Positions 35,971 through 52,950 of a stretch of 64,000 bases of DNA are shown piece after piece (within the stretch, counting starts at the first letter, position 1; each line of letters starts with the position of its first letter). Made by a program: the position numbers and the translations under genes. The notes under the pieces were generated by a model that saw only the letters and a list, made by a program, of their open reading frames with translations, was not told the origin of the DNA and made no database searches. This DNA comes from Gemmatimonadota bacterium (GTDB lineage Bacteria; JBHIER01; G020348925). The stretch lies in NCBI GenBank assembly GCA_020348925.1, contig CP070758.1, positions 3,487,688 to 3,551,687 on the forward strand. Direction: 5' to 3'.

Positions 35971-36355
35971 TGCGATATCCCCCCCAACATCTCTTAGAAA
36001 GGTTGACGCTTCCTGTTAACATACATTTTCATATGTCAACATCCCCCTCAGCCGGACAAAACACTTTTTTGAGATCACCCCCTCTTACAATTTGGGTTGA
36101 CGGTGAAACAGGACTCCTCGCTCCGTTATCACCCCCCTTCTTGTGGAATGGTTGTGACTCCCGGCCCGATTGACGAGGATCATGCGGCCGGAATATCCGT
36201 CAGGCGTGCGGAACAAAATCATCCCAACGTGAACGAAATACGCAGCATTCAAAAGTATTGTCGTCCGCGCCCTGTCTTGACAGCAACCCTAACTGCCAGA
36301 AATTCGTTTCGAGATCTGGTCGAGGTTAATCATATGTACGATGAAGTATGAACAT

Positions 36356-45511: not shown

Positions 45512-47668
45512 CTACTTCATCAAGACCATCCGTTTCGTGGCAGTAAACTCACCAGCTTTGATGGTGGAAAAATAGACTCCGCTCGGCACAGACTCCGCGT
45601 TCCAGGTGATCTCATGATGACCGGCCACCAGCTCTCTGCCGATAAGAGTCACCACCTTCTGTCCTAATACGTTGTACACAGAAAGATCCACCTCACAGTC
45701 CTTCGGCAGATCGAAGGCGATCCTCGTGGTGGGGTTGAACGGATTGGGATAGTTCTGAGCCAAACCGAACTCCCTCGGTACAAGAGCATCCTTTGAGGCG
45801 ATGCTGAAGTTCCGGGCCACCCGCTTGTACGGCGGGCAGAAATCCTCGTCCGACATGTCGGAGCCGCACATGCCGACGGCGTCGCAGCAAGTGACCTGGA
45901 CCCGGCACTGGTCCGACGGCGGACCGGTCACCGTCCAGTCGTAGGATCCCGGGTTACCCGACAACTCTGCAATGACCCACCAGTTCTGGCCGCCGTCAAC
46001 GGAATACTCGACAATGGTGGTATCTATGCCCACGTTGTCCGACCCATCCCACATGATGGTGTAAACCTGCCCGATGTAGAGCACCTCGCCACCGTTGGGC
46101 TGAATAACCGTCACAGACGGTGCAACAACAGCATCCAAGGCTTTGAACACATTGATCCTGCCGCTGCCCAAAAGGCCCTCGTAGCCGGGATTGAGGTCGT
46201 CGATGTTGTCGGTGTAATCCACGATCAGGTCGAAGATTTCCTGCCGGGTCAGAGTGGGATCGTAGGATTTGAGGATACCGGCCTCTCCGGTCGCATGAGG
46301 GGATGCCTGCGAGGTGCCACTGACCCAGGCCACATAGTTCGGGTTGTAGTGCAACGAGTACGTGCTAATCACATTTACCCCAGGAGCAGCAACATCCACC
46401 CACGTGCCGTAGTCCGACCACCAGGGTTTGACATCGCTGTTGTTGACGGCGCATACGTTCAGAACATCCGTCCGCTGTCCCAGATAGTCGGGAACGCTGT
46501 CACCGTCGTTGCCCGCAGCAGCCACGACGAGCACACCGTTGGCAATGGCGTAGTCAAGGGCCGCCCCCAGTCCCCCGGTGTTGGACGATCCCCAGCTGCA
46601 GTTGACGGCCGTCGCCCCCTTGTTCGCGGCGTAGTACATGGCCTGGGCGGCGAAATCCATGCGGACATAGCCGACCTCCTGCCCACCATAGTTGCCCGAC
46701 CAGCCGATCCGGAGGGCCATGACCTTGACGCCGTTGGCCGGATCGTTCATCCCCGCGTTCCAGCCGCCGGCAAGCCCGGCCACCATGACACTGTTGTTCG
46801 TAATAGCTCCCATGATGCCGCCCACGTGCGTGCCGTGACCGTTGAAATCCGTGGGCTCGTTGTCCTCCGTATAGCAGTCCTCACCCGGCCAGCAATTGCT
46901 CCCGCCGTTCACAAAGTCCCAGCCGATCCAGTCGTCGACATAGCTGTTGCCGTCATCGTCGACTCCTTTTATCCCATTGTACTCCGCCCAGTTGATCCAG
47001 ACATTCCCTTCGGTGTACGGCGACAGACCACCCAAGTCACGCGAGTTGTATTGCAGTCCCGTATCCAGATCTCCAAGGAGGATGCTGGCATCGCCGGTCT
47101 CCAGATCCCAGGCATCCGTGGCATCCACGTCGTTGTCATCGCTGTCGTAGAAATTCCACTGGTCGGACAGGAAATAGGGATCGTTCGGGATCGACTCGAA
47201 CACCCGATGGACACCGATCTTCTCCACATGGTCCACGCTCGGATTCTCCGAGTAGGCTTTCACGACGTCATCCAGACTCTTGCCCGAATCAAACTTCACA
47301 ATGTAGTACCGAGAAAGGTCGGGTGCATCCACACGCCTCACCTCGGCAGCCGTCTCAACATCAGGGAATTCCCGGTACATTTTGGTCACTTGAAACTCTT
47401 TGTTCACCATGTCCACAGCCGCAATGCCGGTCGTTATGATCCCTTCCTGTAAAACCGGCTGTACATTTGCCTCTCTCTTGAACTCCACTACAATGGCATC
47501 TGGCACGTACTGCTGATCCGCCTCTGCTATGAGAGAAGTGACGGGCTGGAAAGGAACCCGAATCTCTTTTAATCTCGTAATGTCTTGAACATCACCGATG
47601 CCCTGGGCCATGACACTCTGAGACAAGGCAAAGAGAATGAATGTACTCACAATTATTACGGTTTTCAT
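45512..47668 (-). CDS. S8 subtilisin-like serine peptidase with T9SS-type tail
   Basis: DTG / HGTHVGG / SGTSQASPH triad, PNDPYF, PNGGE module, QNYPNPFNP. Start MKTVII follows GGAGGGGGG. Confidence 0.92.
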   Translation of the reverse strand: MKTVIIVSTFILFALSQSVMAQGIGDVQDITRLKEIRVPFQPVTSLIAEADQQYVPDAIVVEFKREANVQPVLQEGIITTGIAAVDMVNKEFQVTKMYREFPDVETAAEVRRVDAPDLSRYYIVKFDSGKSLDDVVKAYSENPSVDHVEKIGVHRVFESIPNDPYFLSDQWNFYDSDDNDVDATDAWDLETGDASILLGDLDTGLQYNSRDLGGLSPYTEGNVWINWAEYNGIKGVDDDGNSYVDDWIGWDFVNGGSNCWPGEDCYTEDNEPTDFNGHGTHVGGIMGAITNNSVMVAGLAGGWNAGMNDPANGVKVMALRIGWSGNYGGQEVGYVRMDFAAQAMYYAANKGATAVNCSWGSSNTGGLGAALDYAIANGVLVVAAAGNDGDSVPDYLGQRTDVLNVCAVNNSDVKPWWSDYGTWVDVAAPGVNVISTYSLHYNPNYVAWVSGTSQASPHATGEAGILKSYDPTLTRQEIFDLIVDYTDNIDDLNPGYEGLLGSGRINVFKALDAVVAPSVTVIQPNGGEVLYIGQVYTIMWDGSDNVGIDTTIVEYSVDGGQNWWVIAELSGNPGSYDWTVTGPPSDQCRVQVTCCDAVGMCGSDMSDEDFCPPYKRVARNFSIASKDALVPREFGLAQNYPNPFNPTTRIAFDLPKDCEVDLSVYNVLGQKVVTLIGRELVAGHHEITWNAESVPSGVYFSTIKAGEFTATKRMVLMK

Positions 47669-48012
47669 AATGATACCCCCCTCCAAAAGGCACACCATTT
47701 TTGAAACAGACACGAGAACCATTTAACAAACAATGCCAGGAGCCACCCCCTTTCATTCAATGGAGATAGAGACACAGTCCGGAACCCTTATCACCCCCTT
47801 TCATGGAGATTCTGTGGCCGGTCTCGAGCGCATCACCCCCTTTTCGAGTTTAAGAAAGAAAAAAGTGAGATCGAAAAAATAACGGACTCTCAAGAACGAT
47901 CAAAGTATCCTTGCCACTCCATTCAGAGAGCCCATCTTCATAACCACAAAAGTCTGTCCTGGGAGAAGATCACGATTCCGATATCTGGTGTGCTGTTCTT
48001 AATGATTGTTTA

Positions 48013-48041
48013 ATTATAGGTATTTTTAGACGAAATGTCAA
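48013..48041 (-). promoter_or_regulatory. Perfect consensus sigma70 promoter of S8 peptidase 45512..47668
   Basis: TTGACA-17 bp-TATAAT. Confidence 0.85.
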
Positions 48042-48314
48042 GGAAAAAACGGGGGGCAGGCTCCCTTTTACCGCACTCTTTTCCGGAACTATTGTTGAAA
48101 CCGGCCAGGAAATTACAATTTTCGTAAGAATTCAGCCGCCTGGATGATTCCATGTCTTCCCGCTACTCCCCAGCGGGAAGACACAAATGTCACCCTCCTT
48201 TTTCGAGCATTGAAAAAGCCGCCCTGGTTTGACGACCGGGGCGGCTTTTCATGTCTTTTCAAAGATGAAGTGCGACTCCCGGAGCCTTGAAGACTTCGGA
48301 AGTCTGATCTTAAC

Positions 48315-50048
48315 TTACTTCATCAACACCATCTTGTTTGTGGCGGTGAATTCACCGGCAACAATTCTGTAGAAGTAGACGCCACTGGGCACATCGGAGG
48401 CATTCCAGGTGACACGGTGATACCCCGAATTCTGCATTTCATTCACCAGGGTGGCGATCCGTTGACCGACGATGTTGAAGATTTCCAATGTCACGTTGGC
48501 GTTCACGGGCAGGGTGTAGTGAATCTCCGTCTCAGGGTTGAAAGGGTTCGGAGAGTTCGAAACACTGAACACCTGCGGCACCATAAGTGTGACCGCACCA
48601 CCGGTTCCAAAAACGGGGCCGCTCTCGCATGCCATGGTCACATTGTTGGAACCAGGATCGTACGTATAGGACGCATGCGTCACGTCGGTCACCTCGAAAC
48701 ACCATTCACCCGAGGGTTTCTTCATCCCGGCAGTTTCGAAAGAGACCGTGCCGTCTCCAACGGTCACGTCACTGTAATCGCCTCCAGTGGGGCCGGTGGC
48801 GGTCACGGACACCGTGGCACCGGAAACCGGGTTATTGAGGTTGTCATAAATGGTGACTGTGCAGGTACCAATGTAGTTCGGGCCGACCTTTGCACGACCA
48901 ACGACCATGTCATAAACATGCACGGTAATGCCAACATCTGTGACGTTGATGTAGTCAACCTTCGTTTCGGAATCTGTACCGTATGAATTGGTAACCGTTA
49001 ACGTGACAGTGTACTTTCCCACAGCCGTATATTCGTAAACGGGATCTTGCGCCGTTGAGGTTCCACCGTCACCAAATGTCCAGTCCCATGTGTCAGGGTT
49101 TCCTAAGGAGAGATCCGTAAAATTGACCGTGAGCGGAACTGGTCCGGATGAGGGTGAAGCGCTGAATTCGGCTACCGGCGGGGCCGGTTGGCTTTCATAT
49201 TCGATATACATGTCGTCGATATACACCGGATCCAGGGAGGTATAGTCCCAGGAACGGTTGGTATCAGTGACACGGATATAGACGATTCCGTTGACACCGC
49301 CCGGGAGGTCGGCGGAGTACACCTGTTCAGCCGCACTGGCGACAGTCAGCAGGGCGTTATAGGTAACATCATCGGTGGAATAGGCGAAGGTGAAATCATC
49401 GCCATCGCTGTTGTCCGGTCGATAAGCCTCCACATAAAAGGTGGCCGATGTGGCGCTGCCGATATTGAAATTCCACTTGTGCTCGAGGTAGCTGTACCTC
49501 TTGCGGGGATGCCCTGTATATTCAACCTCAGTAATGACCTCGTAAACGTTATCACTGGTGTACGTGTCGGTGAAATTGCCCGTCACTGTGCCGATAACTG
49601 GAATATCGGACAAGGTGTAGGCTCTCATAGGTGGCTGCGGTTCGGTCACATCGATGTAATCAACTTTGGTGGCAATATCAGAGCCGCAGGCATTACTGGC
49701 GGTCAACGTCACTGTGTACTTCCCCTGGTTCTGGTACTCGTAGGTCGGATGCTGCTCCGTCGAGGTGCCACCGTCACCGAAATCCCACGACCAGGTATCA
49801 GGATTGCCTGTTGACAGATCCGTGAAATTCACCGTCAGTGGTGCCTCGCCACCGGTCGGATTCCCTGTGAAGTCGGCAACAGGTGAAGCCTGAACGGTGA
49901 CAAAGTCTATCTTCGTCTCGGTTGCGTTGCAGCCCTGTGAGCTGCTGCTGACCGTCAAGGGGACCGTGTAGATACCGGGTTCGTCAAAGGAGTAACTGGG
50001 ATTCTGGGCAGTGGACGTACCGCCGTCGCCGAAGTCCCAGTCCCAGCC
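48315..50048 (-). CDS. PKD-repeat secreted protein with T9SS-type tail (5'-partial, runs into the gap)
   Basis: Frame is open from the gap edge (GWDWDFGDGGTSTAQNP). Three WxFGDG PKD domains, SNSPNPFNP...KMVLMK. Confidence 0.85.
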   Translation of the reverse strand, partial: GWDWDFGDGGTSTAQNPSYSFDEPGIYTVPLTVSSSSQGCNATETKIDFVTVQASPVADFTGNPTGGEAPLTVNFTDLSTGNPDTWSWDFGDGGTSTEQHPTYEYQNQGKYTVTLTASNACGSDIATKVDYIDVTEPQPPMRAYTLSDIPVIGTVTGNFTDTYTSDNVYEVITEVEYTGHPRKRYSYLEHKWNFNIGSATSATFYVEAYRPDNSDGDDFTFAYSTDDVTYNALLTVASAAEQVYSADLPGGVNGIVYIRVTDTNRSWDYTSLDPVYIDDMYIEYESQPAPPVAEFSASPSSGPVPLTVNFTDLSLGNPDTWDWTFGDGGTSTAQDPVYEYTAVGKYTVTLTVTNSYGTDSETKVDYINVTDVGITVHVYDMVVGRAKVGPNYIGTCTVTIYDNLNNPVSGATVSVTATGPTGGDYSDVTVGDGTVSFETAGMKKPSGEWCFEVTDVTHASYTYDPGSNNVTMACESGPVFGTGGAVTLMVPQVFSVSNSPNPFNPETEIHYTLPVNANVTLEIFNIVGQRIATLVNEMQNSGYHRVTWNASDVPSGVYFYRIVAGEFTATNKMVLMK

Positions 50049-50049
50049 G

Positions 50050-50149
50050 NNNNNNNNNNNNNNNNNNNNNNNNNNNNNNNNNNNNNNNNNNNNNNNNNNN
50101 NNNNNNNNNNNNNNNNNNNNNNNNNNNNNNNNNNNNNNNNNNNNNNNNN
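50050..50149. other. Scaffold gap (100 N)
   Basis: Run of N. The true length is unknown. Confidence 0.99.
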
Positions 50150-50395
50150 CAGAACATCAAGTACATTCGCCCCGCCGTCACCATTGCAATCGGCCGCCCA
50201 GAGCTCCTCGCCGCTCGGCGGCGGTGACGTTCCCAGAACAATATTTACCGTCAGGACAGCGTCCAGAACATTAATGGCTCCATCACCATTAACATCCCCT
50301 CTCTCCCGCTGGATATCCCATGTGTAAGCTGAGCCATATAGCCCCAGCCCAAACAGGAGCATGGCCAATCCCGCATGTACGATTCGTTTTAACAT
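50150..50395 (-). CDS. N-terminus of a secreted protein: signal peptide plus dockerin (3'-partial)
   Basis: MLKRIVHAGL..., GDVNGDGAINVLD and ADCNGDGGANVLD duplicated Ca-binding loops. May belong to the PKD gene across the gap. Confidence 0.75.
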
Positions 50396-50644: not shown

Positions 50645-52570
50645 TTAGTGGCGGTGATCGCGCTCGTACTCATGATCATAGTCGTGTTTGTAGTGATCGC
50701 GGTCGCGGCGGAAATGGTGGGATCGTGACGGATTGATCTCGTCCAGGGCCCAGACCGCCATGGCCCGAACTTCGGGCTCGGGATCGCGGAGGGTTTCCAG
50801 GAGAGCATCAACGATACGCTCGATGTCGCGGAGAGAATCCCACGTATCACGGATACCGATGAGGCCACAGTTGAAAGCCGCTTCTCGGCGCATGTCCGGC
50901 TTTTTGTCCTCAAGCCGCCTCAGTAATGAGGGCACGCTTTCGGTATAATCGATGGCCCCTTCATCGGCTCTGAATCCATCAGTTACTCTTTTCACCAGGG
51001 GTCCGTTCATCAGGGTGCCGGCCCAGACCTGGTCGTTCTCCCAGGATCTCCAATTCCAATCCGCGAAGATCTCCTCCCGGGCCCATCCGGCCTTTCGACT
51101 GCCTCTATTTTCAATCTCGCCCAGAGCCCACACCACAGCTGTTCGCATGTCTTTCTCTCTTTTGGAAATCTCAACCAACGGATCGATGGCAACCGGGTCT
51201 TCGATCTCTCCCAGTGAAAGAATAGCCATCTCACGCACACGTGGATCACTGTCTTCGAGAGCCCAGATCAGAGGGACGATCGATTTTTTGTCCTTGATCT
51301 CACCGAGGGCCCAGGCGGCAACCTGTCTCACATCGGCGGACCCGTCCCGAAGAGCTTCGGTCAGTGGTATCACAGCATCGTGATCCTCGTGCTCCCCGAG
51401 CCACCAGGCGGCTCTCTGACGGATTATGGGATCTCTGTGTGCTTCCAAGTCCATTATGAGATCACCCGTTACAGGTATAGACTGTCTAACTCCAAAAACA
51501 TCCAGTGTTATGAAGGGCAGCATCAGGACCATCAATGCCAGGGTGATGAGGACAAACTTCTCCGTGCTCAGTGAGGTATGGTTTAGCTTTTCATTCATGA
51601 CGCACCGAATCCTTTCTTTCAATCCGTTTTCTCTGGCCATGGTGACGGCATACATCGGTCTGGCCCGTTTCACGTGGGAACGGGCAACCTGGAGGAGGTA
51701 GGACGCATATTCGTGATTTCGGACACCCTGCTGCAGAGCGTAATCGTCGCAGGCCCGTTCGCGTTCCATAGCACTCCGGCGGCTTGCCAGCCAGACCAGT
51801 GGATTGGGCCAGTAGAAGGCGCAGGCAATTTGCGTAAGAAGATGAAGCAAATAATCCCAGCGGGCGATGTGGGCCAATTCGTGCAGCAGAACACTTCGTG
51901 TTTGCTCCTCGTTCCACGTCCGTACTTCAGGCGGGAATATGATCACCGGTCTGAATATTCCCCAGGCAAAGGGTATCGAGATGTTGTCGCTCACCAAACA
52001 GCGGACACTTCGCAGAAGACCGAGGCGGGTCGCCAGAGGGACGGGCAGGCTGGAGACATCCGACGGATCGAGGGGATGAGCGCGATGGGTGAGGGAGCAG
52101 ACACGAAGAAGATGGATGGTCAGCCTCACGAGGTTCAAAAGGACACCGATCCCCCAGAATCCCAGAAGTATCAGGGCCATCATCCTGAGAGGCGAGGGCT
52201 CAAACGGTTTGTTATCGGTGGTGGATTCTGATGTCTTCGCGGCATTCGGTGCTGTTGTGCTTCTTTCGCCCACAGGTTCGGGATCCAAGGATGTCGTGTG
52301 GGATACACCGGTTGGGCCCTTGGCGTCCAGCCAGATTTCCTCCAGGGAGCCAAACTGCCAGGACGGTACCGTGAAAGATACCAGAGGGAGAACCACCAGG
52401 ATGACAAAAACTGTGCTCCAGGCCAACTGGCGCGCCGCCGCTGAGGATCGCCTCAGCAGCAAAGCTACCACCCCTGCGGCCGTCACCAGCAGCGTCGCTT
52501 TCAAAAAAACAGCGACACCTATCTCTGCCGCAGCCCGTGCCATCATTTCAATAGTGACTGTATCCATCAT
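50645..52570 (-). CDS. BlaR1/MecR1-type M56 peptidase with HEAT repeats and His-rich tail
   Basis: HELAHIARWD, WPNPLVW..ERACD, repeated VR..AAWALGEI, ATGA overlap with the BlaI stop. Confidence 0.9.
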   Translation of the reverse strand: MMDTVTIEMMARAAAEIGVAVFLKATLLVTAAGVVALLLRRSSAAARQLAWSTVFVILVVLPLVSFTVPSWQFGSLEEIWLDAKGPTGVSHTTSLDPEPVGERSTTAPNAAKTSESTTDNKPFEPSPLRMMALILLGFWGIGVLLNLVRLTIHLLRVCSLTHRAHPLDPSDVSSLPVPLATRLGLLRSVRCLVSDNISIPFAWGIFRPVIIFPPEVRTWNEEQTRSVLLHELAHIARWDYLLHLLTQIACAFYWPNPLVWLASRRSAMERERACDDYALQQGVRNHEYASYLLQVARSHVKRARPMYAVTMARENGLKERIRCVMNEKLNHTSLSTEKFVLITLALMVLMLPFITLDVFGVRQSIPVTGDLIMDLEAHRDPIIRQRAAWWLGEHEDHDAVIPLTEALRDGSADVRQVAAWALGEIKDKKSIVPLIWALEDSDPRVREMAILSLGEIEDPVAIDPLVEISKREKDMRTAVVWALGEIENRGSRKAGWAREEIFADWNWRSWENDQVWAGTLMNGPLVKRVTDGFRADEGAIDYTESVPSLLRRLEDKKPDMRREAAFNCGLIGIRDTWDSLRDIERIVDALLETLRDPEPEVRAMAVWALDEINPSRSHHFRRDRDHYKHDYDHEYERDHRH

Positions 52571-52950
52571 GACCCTTTCTCCTTCTCCAACCACGCCTCT
52601 ATCCGTTCAATCTCTTCCTCGGAGAGTTTCCCGGAGGAAGTATTTAGCAAACTCAGGATGGCCCTGGAAGGTGATCCGCCGAAATACGTCCGAATCAGGT
52701 CCCGGGTCGCTTTCCGTGATGCCTTCTCGGCGGAGACAGCGGGTGAATAGATGTAACGGCGGTCATGTTTGCGGTATACGACGTAGCCCTTCTTGGCCAG
52801 AATGCCGAGGGTAATTCGGACGGAGTCATAACTGGTCTCATCGGGCATGCGCTGCACGACATCGGAAACACAGGCCTGGCCCAGTTGGTAGAGGATGTCC
52901 ATGATCTGCCGCTCCCTCTTGCTGAGATATCCGTTCTGCTGATCTTTCAT
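52567..52950 (-). CDS. BlaI/MecI/CopY family repressor
   Basis: LSKRERQIMDILY..SYDSVR..L..KG..YIYSP..FGGS. Confidence 0.92.
   Translation of the reverse strand: MKDQQNGYLSKRERQIMDILYQLGQACVSDVVQRMPDETSYDSVRITLGILAKKGYVVYRKHDRRYIYSPAVSAEKASRKATRDLIRTYFGGSPSRAILSLLNTSSGKLSEEEIERIEAWLEKEKGS

Follow-up and report, generated by a model that had tools for sequence, protein, structure and literature searches.

Knowledge of Shine-Dalgarno (SD) sequences that are not followed by a start codon has so far come from a few Firmicute genes and, most recently, from Escherichia coli. Ribosome standby sites have reportedly been described for MS2 coat and tisB. For lpp, standby loading has been tied to the very high translation of an envelope protein (PMC5924895). 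The STAB-SD of Bacillus thuringiensis cry3A binds the 30S subunit without initiating translation and stabilises the mRNA through a block of RNase J1, as reviewed in PMC4113751 from the primary work of Agaisse & Lereclus 1996 and Mathy et al. 2007. Similar motifs are reported in Listeria inlA, inlC and uhpT (PMC5449094), and several cry genes are described as carrying up to three upstream SDs, the role of which is given as unknown in that account (PMC12970973).

In E. coli, 806 upstream ribosome-binding sites were reported from 30S-seq, with strong SD-like motifs over-represented among them; these upstream SD (uSD) motifs bind 30S without initiator tRNA, and mutation of the focA uSD led to an approximately 10-fold lower expression (bioRxiv 10.1101/2025.04.04.647229). 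According to the same report, 9.6% of the E. coli uSDs are strong and most are weak or mild, with riboswitch, toxin, heat-response and translation genes over-represented among their carriers (bioRxiv 10.1101/2025.04.04.647229).

In the current study, we have analysed the leader of a gene for a secreted S8 (subtilase) peptidase in a window of 64 kb, by which we mean the whole stretch of DNA that was analysed. The leader carries three motifs that are complementary to the 3' tail of the 16S rRNA. Based on their sequence and distribution, we consider it fairly probable that they are start-less upstream SD elements of the STAB-SD or upstream-RBS kind, on which 30S subunits would dock so as to stabilise the mRNA or to stand by for initiation. 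In the openly accessible literature, no account of genome-wide or secretome-linked upstream SDs in such phyla was found.

Host genome and organization of the locus

The window belongs to a scaffolded metagenome-assembled genome of 5.04 Mb (49.5% G+C, 96.3% complete), the phylum of which comprises just two genomes in the GTDB set, the host included. The peptidase has a signal-peptide-like N-terminus, a subtilase prodomain, a catalytic domain, an Ig-like domain and a T9SS C-terminal sorting domain, with profile matches to Peptidase_S8 (1.9e-31), Por_Secre_tail (5.8e-09), Peptidase_S8_N and Big_7. Its start is the ATG at 47668, and orthologs align with it from residue 1. Genome-wide, at least 230 host proteins of at least 150 aa end in a T9SS sorting domain. 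The upstream gene, also on the minus strand, encodes a PKD-domain protein with a T9SS sorting domain, and a terminator hairpin is present at its end (48249-48214).

Initiation in this host is SD-led, with a GGAG peak at -11 before the first ATG in 3140 long ORFs and an enrichment of GGGG at the same place. The 16S gene is represented by a 5' fragment only, both in the host genome and in the phylum's other genome, and its 3' end is unassembled. Because of this, duplexes were scored with the canonical bacterial 16S 3' tail, which, in its commonly quoted form, we take to be the tail of the host. A profile search of the host genome revealed genes for RNase E/G and RNase Y, and a CPSF-like beta-CASP nuclease with scores below the family cut-offs. 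In the same 96.3% complete genome, neither RNase J (TIGR00649) nor CsrA (PF02599) gave a match.

Table 1. Features of the peptidase gene and its leader (positions in the 64-kb window; duplex energies with the canonical 16S tail)
Feature	Position	Strand	Remarks
Promoter, sigma-70-type consensus, TTGACA-17-TATAAT	48041 to 48013	-	12/12 matches
Stable hairpin followed by UUAUUUUUU (U-run)	47872..47936	-	Between promoter and motifs; -22.7 kcal/mol, z = -3.3
SD motif 1, GAAAAGGGGGTGAT	47832..47845	-	Core 172 nt before ATG; duplex -18.7 kcal/mol
SD motif 2, GAAAGGGGGTGAT	47790..47802 (47804 with the preceding AT)	-	Core 130 nt before ATG; duplex -22.0 kcal/mol
SD motif 3, GAAAGGGGGTGG	47743..47754 (47756 with the preceding AT)	-	Core 82 nt before ATG; duplex -19.5 kcal/mol
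TTG-initiated uORF, 22 codons	47665..47733	-	12 nt past the G-run of motif 3; UGA overlaps the main AUG (AUGA)
Shine-Dalgarno of the peptidase gene, GGAGGGGGG	47676..47684	-	7 nt before ATG 47668
S8 (subtilase) peptidase gene, secreted product	45512..47668	-	718 aa; profile matches

Promoter and leader

An earlier note on this DNA had described a perfect promoter, three extended SD motifs and a series of abutting mini-ORFs, all of which were confirmed, with start-to-start spacings between the motifs of 42 and 48 nt. Perfect copies of TTGACA-N17-TATAAT occur 23 times in the genome against 0.63 expected. Most of them precede genes for signal-peptide proteins or T9SS cargo, and the leaders behind them are often 200-500 nt long. 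For the peptidase gene, the promoter position predicts a transcript start near 48006 and hence a leader of about 335-340 nt.

Between this promoter and the motifs lies a stable hairpin with a U-run, for which an equally good fold was obtained in 1/200 shuffles. From its sequence, it resembles a terminator or attenuator, and may alternatively be a processing or stabilising structure. In the first case, it could stop many transcripts short of the motifs; as a processing site, it could place motif 1 near a new 5' end, by analogy with cry3A. The fold of the whole leader is nothing special (z = -0.37). A scan of 47300-48400 against Rfam (E up to 10) returned best matches that were all below gathering, none covering the motifs meaningfully. 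Besides, the promoter-proximal 161 nt have no paralogs in the host's own genome, and a comparison of the leader DNA with 60 other genomes gave just two chance-level matches of 21-28 nt. DNA contigs from four sediment runs cover 47560-48110 in part and show four single-letter differences, none of them in the motifs, a number too small to weigh. Among RNA runs, a search for the locus gave no match.

The three motifs

The motifs share the element (G)AAAGGGGGTG(AT). Within the window, AAAGGGGGTG occurs three times, always in the peptidase leader, while shuffled sequences had a mean of 0.21 copies and never reached three (0/100 shuffles). In the 5.04-Mb genome, it occurs 28 times, against 13 for the reversed control. 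For the genome scan, every GGRGG was scored for its duplex energy with the canonical tail, and with a threshold of -17.5 kcal/mol or below and gaps within 100 nt, the peptidase leader was the sole cluster of three or more sites in the genome (one among 621 sites, against a Poisson expectation of 0.02). A second leader in the same window has two copies, at 112 and 167 nt. The three units do not appear to derive from a tandem duplication, as TRF found none and they align with each other at the motif only.

Assuming the canonical tail, each motif is a 12-14-nt complement of it, far from the start codon. Behind motif 2, there is no ATG, GTG or TTG at a spacing of 2-14 nt. The sole start codon behind motif 1 is an ATG that lies 2 nt past the G-run, within the pairing region, and behind motif 3, a TTG opens the 22-codon uORF, which is probably incidental. 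Given transcription from the predicted promoter, the three motifs are SD-like sequences of the far 5'UTR (upstream of about -35) that probably lack a functional start.

Conservation of the motif in related leaders

Relatives of the peptidase were collected from metagenomes at 80 loci, of which 16 were left out as the match began at the edge of the locus. Among the 64 loci tested, six had less than 120 nt upstream, leaving 58 to be scored. A same-strand site (-16 kcal/mol or below) was found 71-169 nt before the predicted start in 18/58, and an opposite-strand site in 0/58. The earlier note had named a lack of conservation in homologues as an argument against a leader function; instead, the motif is present in all six loci with at least 55% identity (two of which, L025 and L026, have nearly one and the same leader), with the proximal copy 83-88 nt before the ATG, compared with 82 nt in the peptidase leader. 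L025 and L026 have two copies that are 40 nt apart; one upstream copy is the usual number among the orthologs.

When ten leaders (42-70% protein identity) were aligned, invariance was limited to columns within AAGGRGGTG and to a single base of the true SD; column identity averages 43%, and the remainder is unaligned. The spacer between the proximal motif and the SD shows no shared structure visible in 14 leaders. The phylum's other genome has no peptidase ortholog above 38% identity. It contains 32 copies of the 12-mer GAAAGGRGGTGA, against none of the reversed control, and the 30 sites examined in it comprise 13 real SDs and 15 start-less ones, all of the latter before signal-peptide-like genes.

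Tandem pairs with copies 25-55 nt apart were also found more widely. With one genome per species, there are at least 118 such stretches, against a random expectation of about 0.5 by our own estimate for equal-frequency sequence. Among the 80 pairs listed, the second copy is a true SD in 27. In 24 others, both copies are start-less and an SD-led gene follows 55-115 nt on, with a signal-peptide-like product in 22/24; some of these 24 are mutually orthologous, and two are probably contigs of the phylum's other genome. The gene lies at 116-230 nt in 11 of the listed pairs and nearer than 55 nt in three, and none was found in 15. The 24 start-less pairs listed include members of the Zixibacteria, KSB1, Latescibacterota, Omnitrophota and Thermodesulfobacteriota, as well as a Desulfosporosinus.

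Distribution of start-less sites in the host genome

The earlier note had also suggested a genome-wide search for such motifs in leaders, and very strong sites indeed proved to be enriched there. With gene starts and signal peptides called by crude heuristics (the signal-peptide call being a simple regular expression), 2984 genes were examined at 50-250 nt upstream for sites of -18 kcal/mol or below; the sense strand carries 90 of these and the antisense strand 8. No ORF of at least 30 codons lies behind 78 of the 102 sites found 40-300 nt upstream, and 52 of these 78 lack any ATG, GTG or TTG at a spacing of 4-12 nt, a fraction at the chance level (about 0.65 expected). The strongest SDs of this host are mostly situated away from start codons, with only about 31 such sites within 20 nt before a called start.

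In the 78 sites, the information content does not extend beyond the 13 letters GAAAGGRGGTGAT that complement the 16S tail, a result that is partly circular because the sites were chosen by that complementarity. Their central letters are GGAGG in 54/78 and GGGGG in 24/78. Accessibility of the 78 motifs did not differ from that with shuffled flanks (Wilcoxon p = 0.55), and the 40 nt before the motif gave no positional signal of a promoter just upstream.

The position of the sites with respect to the gene follows a clear rule. With refined starts, 133 start-less sites of -17 kcal/mol or below were obtained, none of which lies 25-54 nt upstream. The next two 10-nt bins hold two and three sites, followed by seven at 75-84 nt and a mode of 14 at 85-94 nt. 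Beyond 94 nt, there is a plateau of 4-7 sites per bin up to about 175 nt. An empty zone of 25-54 nt next to the true ribosome-binding site is what steric competition between bound subunits would predict.

Association with exported proteins

Genes preceded by the motif are biased towards exported products. Signal-peptide-like N-termini are found in 50/68 motif genes, compared with 1106/2984 overall, and T9SS sorting domains in 20/68, compared with 210/2916 of the others (odds ratio 5.4, p = 7e-8). The gene-class p-values overstate the case, since signal peptides were called by a plain regular expression and the paralogs included are not independent of one another. The bias was also seen among the 1018 genes that are preceded by 150 nt or more of free sequence, where 49/58 motif genes are signal-peptide-like against 555/960 of the remaining genes, and 15/58 have sorting domains against 83/960. 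In E. coli, mRNAs for membrane proteins decay faster. A speculative explanation for the bias is that translation of the mRNAs for exported proteins takes place at the membrane, which is also the location of RNase Y and RNase E.

Proposed mechanism

We propose that a 30S subunit would dock by base pairing on each motif of the transcribed leader, the free 3' tail of its 16S rRNA pairing with the 12-14-nt complement, in which the central G forms a G-U wobble. In the absence of a usable start codon downstream, the docked subunit would stay parked. Parked subunits could then shield the long leader from RNase E/G and RNase Y and so lengthen the lifetime of the mRNA, and subunits on standby about 70 nt before the true ribosome-binding site could raise the rate of initiation on the presumably highly expressed mRNA of the secreted enzyme. 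The peptidase leader would be the three-copy extreme of an element that is used genome-wide, preferentially on genes for exported and T9SS-sorted proteins.

Docking of 30S is the simplest reading because the letters complement the 16S tail, occur in the sense orientation only, are start-less and avoid the zone in which bound subunits would clash. The analysis establishes the sequence of the motifs and how far it is conserved, their biases for strand and gene class, the lack of start codons behind them and the rule of their position; 30S binding, a positive effect on expression and its division between stabilisation and standby are what we infer, the sign of the effect being taken by analogy from the described precedents. 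The comparative evidence, that is, the leaders of orthologs, the strand bias, the position and the occurrence in other genomes, favours the ribosome-loading or stabilising leader that the earlier note had put forward. The preferred distance and the empty zone fit standby and hand-over at least as well as a pure roadblock. The published block of RNase J1 is not simply transferable to this host, as no RNase J ortholog was found, and any protection would therefore act mainly against endonucleases or 5'-end-dependent scanning.

A bolder and rather doubtful extension of these data is a 30S parking system, ruled by position and biased towards the secretome, that would be common to several uncultured, mostly sediment-dwelling phyla and would hand an ordered queue of subunits to the true start. 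Its signature would be start-less SDs of maximal strength that are absent closer than about 55 nt, favour a slot about 85 nt before the ATG and take up additional slots at intervals of 40-50 nt. Such a system would be mechanistically distinct from the STAB-SD, as it would work without RNase J, and if it exists, it would be a dedicated translation-loading device for the mRNAs of exported proteins.

Alternative explanations

The motifs might instead act as decoys or throttles, with parked 30S subunits competing with the true ribosome-binding site, delaying initiation or sequestering subunits from it, and thus limiting the output of a secreted protease that could be harmful, or pacing it to the secretion machinery. 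All the sequence evidence for 30S docking fits this explanation equally, and the bias towards exported proteins could reflect the pacing of translation to secretion. However, the perfect consensus promoter and the strong SD of the gene itself point to high expression, and 0/133 strong start-less sites fall at 25-54 nt, the zone in which interference would be greatest. In the precedents that were tested, moreover, mutation of the upstream site lowers expression. We therefore regard a decoy function as unlikely.

Leaders regulated by CsrA carry multiple GGA sites. Spaced purine-rich sites with one at the SD, as in the peptidase leader, recall such CsrA-type leaders, and the bias towards one class of genes would suit a dedicated regulator, so that the motifs could be, as the earlier note had also considered, repeated sites for an RNA-binding regulator (either similar to CsrA or acting on the secretome and so far unknown) and not for the ribosome. 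Against this stand several observations. The GGA core is absent from the three copies and from the 24/78 sites with GGGGG genome-wide, and no CsrA homolog was found in the 96.3% complete genome. The information covers just the 13 16S-complementary letters (with the partial circularity mentioned above), and the same letters, those of the 16S-tail complement, recur in unrelated phyla. With these data, binding of a regulatory protein becomes a quite improbable explanation.

A third alternative is control by leader peptides, in which the motifs would be the SDs of a coupled mini-ORF relay or of the TTG uORF, gating ribosomes at the main start. The mini-ORFs are present as described, with the translations MRSRPATESP and MKGGDKGSGLCLYLH (each ending at a stop codon) and MKGGGSWHC..., the third being 54 aa long and running out of frame across the main start. 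The TTG uORF behind motif 3 also terminates overlapping the main AUG. Nevertheless, the ATG of uORF1 lies 2 nt from the G-run, and uORF2 and uORF3 begin at ATGs that come before their motifs and are not preceded by an SD. As for the ATGA and TGAATG junctions, they result from the TGA within the motif and from the AT that by chance precedes two of its copies. No orthologous leader has a uORF chain, a counterpart of the TTG uORF or a usable start behind the motif; in L025, L029, L030, L031 and L035, there is either no ATG, GTG or TTG at a usable spacing or an immediate stop. Genome-wide, starts behind the motifs are at the level of chance (52/78 without one against 0.65 expected). The chain of coupled uORFs that the earlier note had described looks incidental, and gating by leader peptides is very improbable.

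Two further explanations can hardly be upheld. The four G-runs of 5-6 (the three motifs and the real SD), at 42-66-nt intervals, could in principle form an RNA G-quadruplex with a long-loop fold that tunes translation, but quadruplex loops of about 40-60 nt, the length found here, are very unfavourable, orthologs mostly have one upstream copy, and the GGAGG of 54/78 copies is incapable of G5 tracts. The enhancement of translation by 5'UTR quadruplexes reported in E. coli (PMC11087576) speaks for such a fold, to which we nonetheless give next to no credence. Equally implausible is a DNA-level operator or activator site outside the mRNA, which at about 83 nt before the ATG would fall near -50 of an unrecognised proximal promoter with a short leader, but no credible -35/-10 pair was seen on reading the sequence between motif 3 and the SD, the promoter scan gave no minus-strand site there, and the motif is strictly sense-strand (90 vs 8), not palindromic, and in several phyla complementary to the 16S tail along 12-14 nt.

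Implications

The strongest ribosome-binding sequences of this host are mostly found off start codons, at a preferred distance before genes for exported proteins. The question of stabiliser versus standby thereby gains a natural data set with a clear geometric rule. Uncultured degraders of this kind may rely on start-less sites to express their T9SS cargo enzymes, and in genome annotation, such sites can mislead gene callers in which a strong SD is rewarded.

Comparison with known systems

The element resembles the STAB-SD in standing before a gene for a very highly expressed secreted or accumulated protein, and in the possible presence of multiple copies. However, the STAB-SD lies at the mature 5' end, whereas about 160 nt separate motif 1 of the peptidase leader from the predicted 5' end, and the proximal copy in this host is consistently placed about 83 nt before the ATG. 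The STAB-SD acts by blocking RNase J1, while no RNase J ortholog was found in the host, so that the leader appears to depart from the STAB-SD both in its position with respect to the 5' end and in the nuclease concerned. Besides, this host, from a non-Firmicute lineage, uses the element on dozens of genes, mostly with exported products.

Leaders bound by CsrA are similar in having several purine-rich sites tens of nt apart, the last of which overlaps the SD, but they differ in that the three copies of the peptidase leader have no GGA, csrA was not found and the conserved letters span the whole complement of the 16S tail. With neither the GGA sites nor a CsrA gene, the peptidase leader does not belong to this class.

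Standby sites share with the proposed mechanism the loading of a 30S subunit or ribosome upstream and its hand-over once the start site is free or unfolded. The classical standby sites are unstructured stretches that involve no SD pairing and serve structured ribosome-binding sites, whereas binding in this host would use long SD pairing, and no inhibitory structure is evident at the true ribosome-binding site.

The upstream ribosome-binding sites and uSDs of E. coli are likewise SD-like and start-less, and they are situated in far 5'UTRs, at times over 100 nt upstream and with several sites on some mRNAs. Those of E. coli bind 30S independently of the true ribosome-binding site and have a strong positive effect on expression, as is proposed for the motifs of this host. 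The latter differ in being near-maximal complements of 12-14 nt that leave the region below 55 nt empty and are most frequent at about 85-94 nt, and in their bias towards genes for signal-peptide proteins and T9SS cargo.

Overall, the kind of element is already known from STAB-SDs, upstream SDs or ribosome-binding sites and standby sites. To these, the present case adds an example outside the setting of RNase J, with three copies in a phylum of two genomes, a genome-wide distance rule with an empty zone and a bias towards exported and T9SS-sorted proteins.

Consensus promoters and leaders of secretome genes

Perfect copies of TTGACA-N17-TATAAT, the promoter of the S8 peptidase leader, were found 23 times in the whole genome of the source organism, where chance predicts 0.63. 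With three N16 copies added, signal-peptide-like genes, as called crudely by a simple regular expression, follow the promoter in 21 of 26 cases. Eight of these genes encode a T9SS sorting domain, and many of the genes behind the promoters have leaders of 200–500 nt. At least 230 proteins of this genome carry a terminal T9SS sorting domain.

Start-less Shine-Dalgarno motifs also occur as a pair in a second leader of the window, ahead of a gene for a signal-peptide, T9SS-sorted protein distinct from the S8 peptidase. The distal motif is GAAGGGGGGTGAT (core at 36137, 167 nt upstream of the ATG) and the proximal one AGAGGGGGTGAT (core at 36082, 112 nt upstream), while the gene's own SD is GGGGGGG.

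In the peptidase leader, a stable hairpin and UUAUUUUUU lie about 70–130 nt downstream of the predicted transcript start, ahead of the motifs. The hairpin could be an attenuator or a processing site, or it could form the end of a short, roughly 125-nt RNA transcribed from the perfect promoter. Most of the ten orthologous leaders aligned loosely share an A-rich patch (TTTCAAAA-like) about 25–35 nt before the ATG and 5' of the true SD; this patch may be an A/U-rich translational enhancer.

Features in the window and elsewhere in the genome
Feature	Coordinates	Strand	Remark
Start-less motif pair, second leader	36060-36145	-	gene start 35970
Hairpin, then UUAUUUUUU	47872-47936	-	-22.7 kcal/mol, z = -3.3
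Listed ORF, Dockerin_1 match	49955-50395		rejected gene model
Scaffold joint	50049-50148		100 N in a row
M56/HEAT-repeat gene	50645-52594	-	BlaR1-type M56 peptidase domain and many HEAT repeats, one fused protein
Beta-CASP metallo-beta-lactamase protein	L261:316-1722 = G000:C1:305725-307131		468 aa

Neighbouring genes and a candidate nuclease

The M56/HEAT-repeat gene lies 5' of those for the PKD protein and the peptidase, and it may encode a membrane protein that transduces signals for the local secretome cluster. The genome sequence consists of contigs chained via 100-N spacers, and the Dockerin_1-matching ORF was rejected as a real gene model because it crosses such a joint.

RNase J was not found in this genome, which encodes a beta-CASP protein that we regard as a candidate RNA 5'–3' exo/endonuclease. 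It is nearest to archaeal aCPSF1 and to the 'Cas14 MBL-CASP' model, both matches being below the cut-offs.
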